Below, in pieces: positions 38,542 to 62,212 of a stretch of 64,000 nt of DNA. Every line of letters starts with the position of its first letter. Position 1 is the stretch's first letter. Made by a program: the position numbers and the translations under genes. The stretch spans positions 1-64,000 of the IMG/VR virus record IMGVR_UViG_3300023184_000035; one strand, 5' to 3'. The DNA is from a virus. The notes under the pieces are model-generated. The model did no database searches. It worked only from the letters and a program-made list of their open reading frames with translations, and was not told where the DNA came from.

Positions 38542-38637
38542 CTTCAGTTGAAATTTGTGTTATAAATATACATGTAGTGCCCATAGTGGGGCTACAAATC
38601 AAAAAGTCATCTTGCTTAATAAAGGAGAAAACAAATG
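38538..38637 (+). promoter_or_regulatory. promoter (TTGACT-17-TATAAA, overlapping TATAAATA) and ROSE-like RNA thermometer of hsp20
   Basis: TCTTGCTT(38610-38617) pairs with AAGGAGA(38622-38628) with a bulged G; upstream hairpin at 38574-38595. Confidence 0.75.
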
Positions 38638-39093
38638 ACAAAAACTCTAACCCTTCGCACATTCGATATTCCCTCAATTCACAAATTTGGTATTGGTTTC
38701 GACAACCTGTTTGATGATCTCATGCGTGTGAATGCCCAACAAAGCAGCAACAACTATCCACCTTATGACATTGTGCAAATCAATGATGATGAGTACATGA
38801 TCAGTTTGGCTGTGGCTGGTTTTGGACCGGACAACCTAAGTATTACCAAGGACAAAAAATTCTTGATAATTGAAGGCCAGCACAGTCGTGAGACCGTGGA
38901 CAACGAAGATTCAACTGCAAAGTACTTGCACAAAGGCATCAGCGAACGAAGTTTCCGCAGGGAATTTCAACTGGCCGATCACGTGGAAATCAGCAATGCA
39001 CATCTTGAACTTGGTATCCTCAGTGTTCATCTAAAACGTGAAGTTCCTGAAGAAGTCAAACCAAAGACCATTGCGATCTCTTACAAAGAGTAA
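38635..39093 (+). CDS. small heat-shock protein Hsp20 (IbpA-like)
   Basis: IGFD, YPPYDI, LAVAGF, YLHKGI..R.F.R.F.LA. Confidence 0.95.
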   Translation: MTKTLTLRTFDIPSIHKFGIGFDNLFDDLMRVNAQQSSNNYPPYDIVQINDDEYMISLAVAGFGPDNLSITKDKKFLIIEGQHSRETVDNEDSTAKYLHKGISERSFRREFQLADHVEISNAHLELGILSVHLKREVPEEVKPKTIAISYKE

Positions 39094-54404: not shown

Positions 54405-55421
54405 TTATTTCTTGATCTGTGTCCAAACGTCACTGCGGATGCGATCCGTTAGTGATTTTGGCAATGGCACGTAATCAAGATCAGCAGCCATTTTACCACC
54501 ATTCACAAATGCCCAGTCAAAGAACTTGATGGTTTCTTGGCTGTTCTTTGCATTTTTTGGTTCACGGTACATCAACACAAATGTTGCGCCTGTGATGGGC
54601 CATGATTGTGCGCCCTTTTGATTTACCAAACTGATACCCATGCCTGGAACTGAGAACCAGTCTGCACCCTTGGCAGCTGACGCAAACGTTTCATCATCAG
54701 GTTCCACCCACTTGCCATCGCGATTTTGCAATTTAACATGGGTCATTTTGTTCTTTTTAGCATAAGCATATTCCACGTATCCAATTGAATTCTTCACACG
54801 ACTCACATTGGCTGCAACACCCTCGTTGCCCTTGCCACCCACACTACTGGTAGCAGGCCATTTGACAGCGGCACCCCGGCCAACTTCTTCTTTCCAAACG
54901 GCGCTGACTTCAGTCAAGTAGTCTGTGAAAATAAATGTTGTTCCTGACCCATCTGCACGATGCACCACTGTGATGTTGGCATCGGGCAATTTTACTTTGG
55001 GATTTAACTCTTGAATACGTCGGTCATTCCACATAACAATGTGACCAACAAATATCTTGGCCAAGACTTCACCAGTTAACTGTAACTCGCCAGGTTTAAC
55101 GCCTTCTACATTGATCACAGGAACAACACCGCCCAGCACTGTGGGGAATTGTACAAGTCCTGCGGCTGTTAAATCATCACCTTTAAGGGGTGCATCTGTT
55201 GCGCCAAAGTCCACTGTGGCTGCTTTGATTTGCTTGATACCACCTGAACTGCCAATGCTTTGATAGTTAAGTTCAATGCCAGCTTTTTCCTTGTATGCTT
55301 CTGACCACTTGCTATAAATGGGAAAGGGGAAGGTTGCGCCTGCCCCTGTGATTGTTTCTGAATTTGCCTGCGGGCTCATCAAATACAATGACGCCGCAAT
55401 TACTGCTAAGATTTTTTTCAT
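54405..55421 (-). CDS. pstS: phosphate-binding protein PstS
   Basis: GAGATFP, YQSIGSSGG, DFGATD, RADGSGTT, IGYVE, WPI. Confidence 0.97.
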   Translation of the reverse strand: MKKILAVIAASLYLMSPQANSETITGAGATFPFPIYSKWSEAYKEKAGIELNYQSIGSSGGIKQIKAATVDFGATDAPLKGDDLTAAGLVQFPTVLGGVVPVINVEGVKPGELQLTGEVLAKIFVGHIVMWNDRRIQELNPKVKLPDANITVVHRADGSGTTFIFTDYLTEVSAVWKEEVGRGAAVKWPATSSVGGKGNEGVAANVSRVKNSIGYVEYAYAKKNKMTHVKLQNRDGKWVEPDDETFASAAKGADWFSVPGMGISLVNQKGAQSWPITGATFVLMYREPKNAKNSQETIKFFDWAFVNGGKMAADLDYVPLPKSLTDRIRSDVWTQIKK

Positions 55422-55473
55422 GTGTTTGTTCCTTTGTGAATGTGCAATGCACAAATTATTTAAACACAAAGAT

Positions 55474-60621: not shown

Positions 60622-60904
60622 TATTTTAGCTGGAATTTTTGAATGGATACGAAATGACTATCGTACTAATCGCACTAGGTTTGCTGTTGAGCTCTTGGCT
60701 TGGGCTATCAGTATTGGGTGCTCGGTTACCATGGCACTCACCGTACCAACCCCTCCTCTTCTTTACATGTATCCTGTGTGGATTAGTGGTTGTGCCATGT
60801 ATGCTTGGGCTGCCTATACTCGAAAGAGTTTTGGCATGCTGGCCAATTACATATTGTTGACTACAATAGATTCAATTGGCCTGGCACGGATGTTGTTAAA
60901 CTGA
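60614..60904 (+). CDS. small multi-TM membrane protein
   Basis: Three hydrophobic segments. Confidence 0.7.
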   Translation: MPDILAGIFEWIRNDYRTNRTRFAVELLAWAISIGCSVTMALTVPTPPLLYMYPVWISGCAMYAWAAYTRKSFGMLANYILLTTIDSIGLARMLLN

Positions 60905-61258
60905 TTTCTTTTTAGCAGGTGCTTTTTTGGCGGCAGCTGGCTTGGCTGCCGTTTTCTTGGCTGCTGGCTTTTTGGCCGGGGTCTTTTTAGCAGGTGCTTG
61001 TTCCACAACTGGTGCAGGTGCTTCTACTCGATTCTCACTGCCTGTGGGCTCTGCAGGTGCCACCGGTGCTAAATCAGACACTTTGACATGAATTTTGCCT
61101 TCAGGCAATTTCTCGCCGTAAGGCCAAGGTTTGTCAGTCAAATGCATTTCTTTGGGCGGCTCCCAAGTCTCAATAGAATCCTTTGATTTGTTGGCCTTGT
61201 CTCTGGCCCAAACCACTGCAATCAACGCAATCACTGCCAATACGATAATAATTTCCAT
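60896..61258 (-). CDS. membrane-anchored protein with histone-H1-like K/A/P tail
   Basis: N-terminal TM; AKKTPAKKPAAKK tail; AGGAG SD. Confidence 0.75.
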   Translation of the reverse strand: MEIIIVLAVIALIAVVWARDKANKSKDSIETWEPPKEMHLTDKPWPYGEKLPEGKIHVKVSDLAPVAPAEPTGSENRVEAPAPVVEQAPAKKTPAKKPAAKKTAAKPAAAKKAPAKKKSV

Positions 61259-61332: not shown

Positions 61333-61430
61333 ATGTTGCACTGCAACATAAATAATGTTACAATAGAAGCACAAGACGCTGAATGGTTCGGGTCTTGTGT
61401 TCTAGAACTTGCTTAATTTAAGGAGAAAAC
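61333..61430 (+). promoter_or_regulatory. palindromic operator over the -35, sigma70 promoter, and ROSE-like leader
   Basis: ATGTTGCA-C-TGCAACAT; TTGCAC-17 nt-TACAAT; CTTGCTT pairing with AAGGAG. Confidence 0.7.
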
Positions 61431-61688
61431 ATGTTCAATTCCGTAATCGAATCTGTGCAAAATGCACAAAAAACTTTTGTCAATACCTTTGTCACCAACG
61501 AGGAAATTGCCAAGCCCATGATCCGAATGATCGACAGCCAGTATGACACTGCCAAGTTGACTGCTAAAGCAGTGTTGGATATCAGTACAACCCTGGCCTC
61601 AGCAACAACTGAAAAAGTGCAGGAAGCAATGAAGTTTGACGTGACCAAATTTGCTGACACCTTCAAACCAGCCGCTGTTAAAAAGTAA
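61431..61688 (+). CDS. amphipathic helical protein, phasin-like
   Basis: All-helical A/T/K/Q-rich amphipathic pattern; strong SD; own terminator. Confidence 0.55.
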   Translation: MFNSVIESVQNAQKTFVNTFVTNEEIAKPMIRMIDSQYDTAKLTAKAVLDISTTLASATTEKVQEAMKFDVTKFADTFKPAAVKK

Positions 61689-61710
61689 TACTCAAGTAGT
61701 ACTTTTGAAG

Positions 61711-61736
61711 ACCCTGCTGAGTGCAGGGTTTTTCTT
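61711..61736 (+). terminator. rho-independent terminator
   Basis: ACCCTGC-TGAGT-GCAGGGT followed by TTTTCTT. Confidence 0.8.
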
Positions 61737-61763
61737 GACCAGAATTTACCGATCTGCTATAAT
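61735..61763 (+). promoter_or_regulatory. early promoter (TTGACC family)
   Basis: TTGACC-17 nt-TATAAT with extended TG. Confidence 0.85.
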
Positions 61764-62183: not shown

Positions 62184-62212
62184 TTGACCAATAATTACCA
62201 ATCTGCTATAAT
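62184..62212 (+). promoter_or_regulatory. early promoter (TTGACC family), leaderless
   Basis: TTGACC-17 nt-TATAAT; ATG at 62219. Confidence 0.85.

Follow-up and report, generated by a model that had tools for sequence, protein, structure and literature searches.

Phages couple auxiliary genes to the phosphate or nitrogen regulators of their hosts, and the pstS gene of cyanophages is a phage auxiliary gene under Pho-box control. In Herbaspirillum seropedicae, the footprinted motif of PhbF is TG-N-TGC-N3-GCAA (PMC3206438), and the footprint-derived consensus of PhaR from Bradyrhizobium diazoefficiens is TGCRNYGCASMA (PMC6201568); the PhaR-phaP circuit of Cupriavidus necator is considered here as it is cited in these two papers (PMC3206438, PMC6201568). 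ROSE leaders usually serve small heat-shock genes, and their defining feature is a U(U/C)GCU motif with a bulged G, imperfectly paired to the SD sequence in the 3' hairpin (PMC3669281).

Here we describe a phage locus in which control elements of both kinds appear to be combined. The window, that is, the whole stretch of DNA analyzed, comprises the initial 64 kb of an IMG/VR virus record that spans 148 kb and has an estimated completeness of 42%. Because 148 kb amounts to only an estimated 42% of the genome, the phage is a giant; it is uncultured, comes from a lake and is of the lytic type. Judging from sequence comparison, we consider it probable that the locus is a PhaR-gated, ROSE-controlled cassette with a phasin-like product at PHB granules. 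The predicted regulatory wiring, namely the operator and the leader, is well supported, and the product is phasin-like in its character and putative regulation, a weakly supported assignment that stops short of membership in the phasin family.

Layout of the cassette and its genomic context

A direct reading of the sequence recovered, in the same positions, every feature that had been listed in a preliminary description of this locus (Table 1).

Table 1. Features of the 85-aa gene cassette, in window coordinates
Feature	Position	Strand	Description
Second conserved dyad TTAGTG-N6-CACTAA	61293..61310		~25 bp 5' of the operator
PhaR-box-like operator (predicted)	61333..61349		Perfect 17-bp palindrome with TGC-N3-GCA core, overlapping the -35
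Sigma-70-type promoter	61336..61364	+	-35 TTGCAC (61336-61341), 17-nt spacer, extended -10 TG-n-TACAAT (61356-64)
Predicted transcription start	~61370/61371	+	From promoter position
Complete ROSE-like 5' leader	61370..61436	+	Match to Rfam RF02523 (ROSE_3), reaching the start codon
Leader hairpin 1 (= ROSE_3 hairpin I)	61371..61398	+	ACAAGAC/GTCTTGT, at the predicted mRNA 5' end; from the fold
Leader hairpin 2	61408..61425	+	CTTGCTT...AAGGAG; UUGCU anti-SD motif with bulged G; SD AAGGAG at 61420-61425
85-aa ORF, amphipathic all-helical phage-specific protein	61431..61688	+	ATG at 61431
Intrinsic terminator	61709..61736	+	G+C-rich stem (61709-61731), then T tract

Because its upstream neighbor is divergent and a separate consensus promoter (61735-61763) serves the gene that follows, the 85-aa gene is a stand-alone cassette. 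None of 200 shuffled sequences was as stable as the terminator hairpin (-16.4 kcal/mol, z -3.9), the stem of which is invariant among relatives and the loop variable. The dyad upstream of the operator occurs once in the 148-kb record and recurs 5' of many distant homologues of the 85-aa gene, some of them without a PhaR box.

The small genes downstream are preceded by near-consensus TTGACC-17-TATAAT promoters with TG extensions at 61735-61763 and 62184-62212, an arrangement that suggests a run of early genes, each independently and strongly expressed; homologues of these genes are absent from the related loci. The divergent gene (60896-61258, minus strand) encodes a 120-aa protein with an N-terminal membrane helix and a tail rich in PAKK/AAKK, and is conserved only among close relatives. 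The tail recalls those of the granule-associated proteins PhaM and PhaF, which are lysine-rich.

The PstS protein of the phage shares 60-70% identity with its counterparts in freshwater Burkholderiales, among them Polynucleobacter and Limnohabitans, and on this ground these bacteria are taken as the likely host group. By the same sequence criteria, the host is probably Polynucleobacter or a close Burkholderiales relative; Polynucleobacter in particular is indicated because the leader of the cassette resembles a Polynucleobacter ibpA leader (see below). Comparisons with bacterial genes were made in five host-like genomes, drawn from Polynucleobacter, Limnohabitans and Actimicrobium.

A family of small amphipathic proteins with phasin-like traits

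Between relatives, 607 substitutions fall at third codon positions versus 254 and 122 at first and second positions, respectively, and this clustering identifies the 85-aa ORF as a real gene. Giant-phage contigs from freshwater carry the family in abundance, with 131 clusters at 50% identity; close homologues number 131 and are 85-87 aa long, and homologues often lie on contigs of 100 to ~350 kb. AlphaFold2 models the protein as a single helix spanning residues 2-77 (pLDDT 70), and proline 29 is invariant in the family. The mean hydrophobic moment is 0.34, compared with 0.20 for shuffled sequences, none of which (0/1000) was as high.

It is possible, although in our estimation somewhat unlikely, that the gene is regulated as proposed and yet encodes a protein that does not bind granules but is some other small protein linked to stress. 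Such a protein could be a holdase-like chaperone, bind membranes or lipids, or act as a decoy for a host protein, PhaR or another; the phage would then borrow the signals of PHB and heat only for timing. In line with this alternative, the window protein matched no phasin model in Pfam or NCBIfam. Searches of Pfam, PHROGs and NCBIfam found nothing meaningful for it, BLASTP against a host phasin gave no match, and a search of the phage record with Phasin_2 (PF09361) was equally negative. Blastn and tblastn searches with the window protein or a distant relative gave no match among 50,697 phage genomes on deposit, and designed helical bundles were all that a profile search of PDB sequences retrieved. 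Relatives are absent from 185,579 species genomes as well as from 41 Polynucleobacter genomes, which favors a function other than that of a phasin. The same holds for the leader, given that ROSE leaders are usual for small heat-shock protein (sHSP) genes and that the sHSP gene of this very phage has a similar one.

On the other side, the protein is strongly amphipathic, bacterial boxes of the type found at its promoter mainly precede phasin, depolymerase and phaR genes, and Phasin_2 is by far the commonest Pfam attraction within the family, being matched by 15 of 71 relatives at E <=0.1 (best 1.6e-4), compared with at most 3 for any other family. Among ten selected relatives, nine had Phasin_2 scores of 13.6-22.3 bits, against a cut-off of 24.9, and the registers of these matches differed. 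An HMM of our own, built from 38 bacterial phasin domains, gave median scores of 8.5 bits for the real sequences, 5.3 for reversed and below 0 for shuffled ones, with the real sequences aligning in two registers. Because the Phasin_2 register shifts in this manner, shared helical composition fits the matches as well as homology does. Comparison of the family with host phasins by hhalign yielded a probability of 0.8% with the alignments made by the tool and of 40%, over just 22 columns, with cleaned alignments. In the ESM Atlas, the named clusters closest to the protein were Phasin_2, the C-terminal domain of PhaR (second, which again suits a decoy or other non-phasin role) and PHA synthase subunit E. 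All three are PHA-related, which speaks for the phasin-like reading, and all score below the level at which they would count as more than a lead.

Thus far, the identification of the gene as phasin-like, put forward in the preliminary description, finds weak support: sub-threshold Phasin_2 matches recur among the relatives, whereas the window protein itself matches no phasin model.

A ROSE-like leader related to those of host ibpA genes

The leader matches the Rfam family ROSE_3 (RF02523) over model positions 1-69 of 69 with a score of 41.7 bits (E 1e-7), 1.3 bits short of the curated gathering cut-off of 43; the leaders of relatives score 34.4-37.9 bits. Hairpin 1 aligns with model positions 1-30, and in hairpin 2 the alignment pairs CUU-G-CUUA with UAAG-GAG, leaving the G bulged. 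In place of the usual target of ROSE leaders, the gene downstream encodes a protein that is not Hsp20, as judged by a Pfam search. An earlier rendering of the anti-SD hairpin as an unsupported 3-bp helix was dropped, given that the ROSE_3 alignment yields a 7-bp helix with a bulged G.

Comparison of 57 leaders of the family revealed changes on both sides in 5 of the 9 pairs of hairpin 1, for which 87% of cells were paired. The corresponding figure for hairpin 2 was 85%; its motif alternates between U and C, and most of its positions are conserved rather than covarying. In a control in which the partners were slid against each other, the complete structure of 16-18 pairs was paired in only 30-59% of cells. 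At 4, 25, 37 and 42 C, the predicted free energy of hairpin 2 is -5.4, -2.3, -0.6 and +0.15 kcal/mol, respectively, and by standard energy rules its stability is no better than that of shuffled sequence.

These observations bear on a distinctly unlikely alternative, namely, that the leader is not a thermosensor, with hairpin 1 shielding the 5' end of the mRNA and the second element serving as a strong ribosome-binding site for constitutively high translation. The position of hairpin 1 exactly at the predicted 5' end would suit such a role, as would the weakness of hairpin 2 at 37 C, its stability no better than that of shuffled sequences, its conservation in place of covariation, and the Rfam score under the curated cut-off. 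However, all ROSE_3 positions are matched at a low E value, the U(U/C)GCU motif and bulged G that define ROSE elements are retained with U and C alternating, and the predicted marginal stability of hairpin 2 at 4-25 C is what the thermometer of a lake organism would need.

Further evidence for a thermometer comes from a covariance model, R1, that was built from these phage leaders only and that also picks out leaders of ibpA genes in Polynucleobacter, the likely host genus. R1 scores the leader of the phasin-like gene at 59.6 bits. Of 41 Polynucleobacter genomes, 3 contain a full-length match, in every case directly 5' of a gene for a 154-aa Hsp20/IbpA protein (L405-L407). Over 27 aligned bases, GAACTTGCTTAATTTAAGGAGAAAAC, the hairpin 2/SD region of the phage is identical to a Polynucleobacter ibpA leader. 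The leaders of these ibpA genes are themselves two-hairpin and ROSE-like, behind a promoter that, by eye, resembles those of sigma-32. A ROSE_3 search of the five host-like genomes, a set apart from the three genomes with ibpA leaders, gave no match, and the control was equally silent.

R1 has a second match in the window, at 38563-38636 (30.4 bits), ahead of the phage Hsp20 gene. This locus (38563-39093, plus strand) encodes an sHSP of the Hsp20/IbpA type of 152 aa (PF00011, E 2e-16), and the leader of the gene reads CTTGCTTAA...AAGGAG behind a TTGACT-17-TATAAA promoter. Taken together, the ROSE_3-like features of the cassette leader and its relationship to a host ibpA leader argue for the RNA-thermometer-like element more strongly than the features on which the preliminary description had relied.

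A candidate PhaR operator over the promoter

The palindrome at the promoter reads ATGTTGCA-C-TGCAACAT. Within it, TGTTGCACTGCAA fits the Herbaspirillum PhbF motif exactly, and TGCACTGCAACA fits the Bradyrhizobium PhaR consensus at 11 of 12 positions. Perfect 8-N1-8 palindromes are not rare as such, with 12 in 148 kb versus ~3 in shuffled sequence. However, GTTGCA-N-TGCAAC has a single promoter-located copy in the 148-kb record, that of the phasin-like gene. A weight matrix made from 49 host boxes located 5' of bacterial phasin genes (host median, 20.4 bits) returned the operator as its top match in 148 kb, at 22.4 bits, a score reached by 0.4% of shuffled genomes (P 0.004). The -35 element sits inside the palindrome, and a phasin promoter of P. 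necessarius is laid out alike: over the segment that begins with the box and extends to the TG of the -10, it is identical to the phage promoter at 25 of 28 bases. A reading of the palindrome as a minus-strand terminator was rejected, as the palindrome has no minus-strand gene reading into it and relatives do not keep the flanking A/T run as a T tract.

Each of the five host-like genomes encodes PhaR, and four of them carry 2-5 Phasin_2 genes. Of the 13 phasin genes in these genomes, 9 have one to three TGC-N3-GCA boxes in the 130 bp 5' of the gene, and in a random draw of phasin genes from Pseudomonadota boxes were present 5' of 20 out of 29; over both sets the boxes lie within ~165 bp. The 12-mer GTGCA-N-TGCAAC occurs in 3-4 copies per Polynucleobacter genome, against 0-1 for a reversed control pattern, and precedes a phasin gene in each of three Polynucleobacter genomes and, in one of them, a PHB depolymerase gene as well. 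In P. necessarius, phaR too is preceded by a box, ~30 nt ahead of its start codon. The loose 13-mer PhbF pattern was dropped as evidence, being too common across Polynucleobacter genomes. With its match both to the published PhaR/PhbF consensus and to the boxes that the likely host genus has ahead of genes for phasins, a PHB depolymerase and PhaR, the palindrome has the sequence expected of the PhaR-type operator that had been proposed. No PhaR homologue was found in the 148-kb phage record (an estimated 42% of the genome), and for this reason it is a host repressor that would read the phage site; isocitrate lyase was likewise not found in the 148-kb record.

Conservation of the candidate operator in related phages

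The preliminary description had considered the case of a palindrome that is not conserved upstream of homologues, and the opposite was found, in most close relatives as well as in distant ones. Among 78 distinct upstream regions, taken from homologues 40-50% identical in protein, 44 carry a box between -85 and -103 relative to the ATG, compared with a mean of 1.2 and a maximum of 7 in shuffles; in these distant homologues the box is mostly ATGTTGC-R-N-Y-GCAACAT. The left arm does not vary among close relatives, for which 37 distinct upstream regions were compared, and the right arm varies as TGC-R-N-Y-GCA, with symmetric TGCG/CGCA changes as well as non-complementary TGCA/CGCA combinations, a pattern that fits a protein-binding site better than a hairpin. 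In one clade of close relatives the right half-site is degenerate (TGCC AGGT), and the -10 block is invariant among the relatives.

About 11 of 70 distant relatives lack the box and have a better -35, TTGAT(T/C), in the same place, the pattern expected of an operator laid over a promoter. Other distant relatives carry boxes with one mismatch or TGC-N4-GCA variants. At loci L189, L191, L192, L201, L202, L205, L250, L273 and L308, a variant 17-mer, ATGCTGCGACCGCACAT, with a TGC-N4-GCA core replaces the N3 box, in either orientation. The TGC-N4-GCA variant matches no published PhaR site and may represent another operator specificity or the site of another host repressor.

That the palindrome is read by another regulator of the phage or host, or is a family-specific part of the promoter, with its likeness to a PhaR site being coincidental, is very unlikely: the excess of perfect palindromes, the second conserved dyad 25 bp upstream, the relatives with TGC-N4-GCA variants or no box, and the room for a phage-encoded regulator in the part of the genome beyond the 42% in the record all speak for it, but they are set against the matrix P value, a match that reaches beyond the core into the flanks and the -10 when compared with a host phasin promoter, the occurrence of the same box, equal to the footprinted motifs, 5' of PHA genes across Pseudomonadota, and the uniqueness of this promoter-located site in 148 kb.

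As both elements match host-type counterparts, the control region appears to consist of a phasin-type operator and promoter joined to an ibpA-type thermometer.

The pstS leader and the proposed link to phosphate

In the preliminary description, the cassette had been tied to the Pho module of the phage. The second-best match to the PhaR matrix, at 55439-55455 on the minus strand, is a palindrome resembling a PhaR box that has the Pho box of pstS on one side and the SD on the other; its score of 18.6 bits is reached in 6% of shuffles. The palindrome is present in 61 related phage pstS leaders at -32 to -36, with its arms separated by N3, N4 or N5, and this variable spacing makes an RNA hairpin likelier than a PhaR site. 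A second PhaR box at pstS was therefore not accepted, and the tie to the Pho module is conjectural. The true start of pstS is the ATG at 55421.

Proposed mechanism and implications

In the mechanism that we propose, host RNA polymerase would start at a promoter whose -35 lies within a site for host PhaR, and PhaR would quit the DNA on binding PHB granules. The gene would thus be off in PHB-free cells and on in cells that build PHB, like host phasin genes. In the transcript, the ROSE-type hairpin 2, predicted to be marginally stable, would mask the ribosome-binding site behind UUGCU, such that translation would increase with temperature, as for host ibpA, and would be limited in the cold. The amphipathic 85-aa product would then most likely act in a phasin-like manner on PHB granule surfaces, where it might, for instance, displace coat proteins of the host or expose the polymer to depolymerase. 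We infer repression by PhaR and thermosensing by the leader from strong sequence and comparative evidence, and we infer granule binding by the 85-aa protein.

A more elaborate version, which we regard as rather unlikely, envisages a two-input gate built of borrowed host parts, with PHB sensed through PhaR and warmth through an ibpA-type thermometer, controlling a phage-invented granule protein that would open PHB to depolymerase and so fuel replication. If this version were true, PHB stores would be a resource both sensed and exploited by lake phages.

If the PhaR-gated, ROSE-controlled reading is true, many lake phages would check the PHB status of the host and the temperature before producing the protein. 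The locus would offer a compact and testable case of a phage control region assembled out of two host regulons. It would also add a new small-protein family whose members may have PHB granules as their site of action and might find use as granule tags.

Comparison with known systems

Full-text literature searches yielded no published example of a phage phasin or of a phage PhaR box, and a PhaR link combined with an RNA thermometer in a phage is new relative to the searchable literature. The cassette resembles the PhaR-phaP circuit in having a TGC-N3-GCA operator that overlaps a sigma-70 -35/-10 promoter ahead of a gene for a small helical protein. It differs from that circuit in that the gene belongs to a phage, a giant of the lytic type, the product is not recognizable as Phasin_2, and the PhaR site is predicted from sequence. 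The product itself is small, amphipathic, all-helical and rich in A, T, K, Q and E, as are Phasin_2 proteins (PF09361); however, it has 85 aa, compared with 175-210 aa in host phasins, and the phage protein has no bacterial homologues.

With the ROSE-like thermometers of ibpA genes (Pseudomonas, PMC3669281; ROSE_3), the phage leader shares a length of ~60 nt, two hairpins and an AUG that follows immediately. Unlike them, it controls a gene for a protein other than an sHSP and stands behind a putatively PhaR-gated promoter, which is of the sigma-70 and not the sigma-32 type.

Finally, the cassette can be compared with the Pho-box-controlled pstS of cyanophages and with the Pho-box pstS of this phage itself. 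In both cases, the operator of a host sensor is placed on a phage gene, so that expression would track the physiology of the host. The signal differs, however, and for the phasin-like gene it would be the carbon store PHB, predicted to be read through PhaR, with a putative RNA thermometer in addition.
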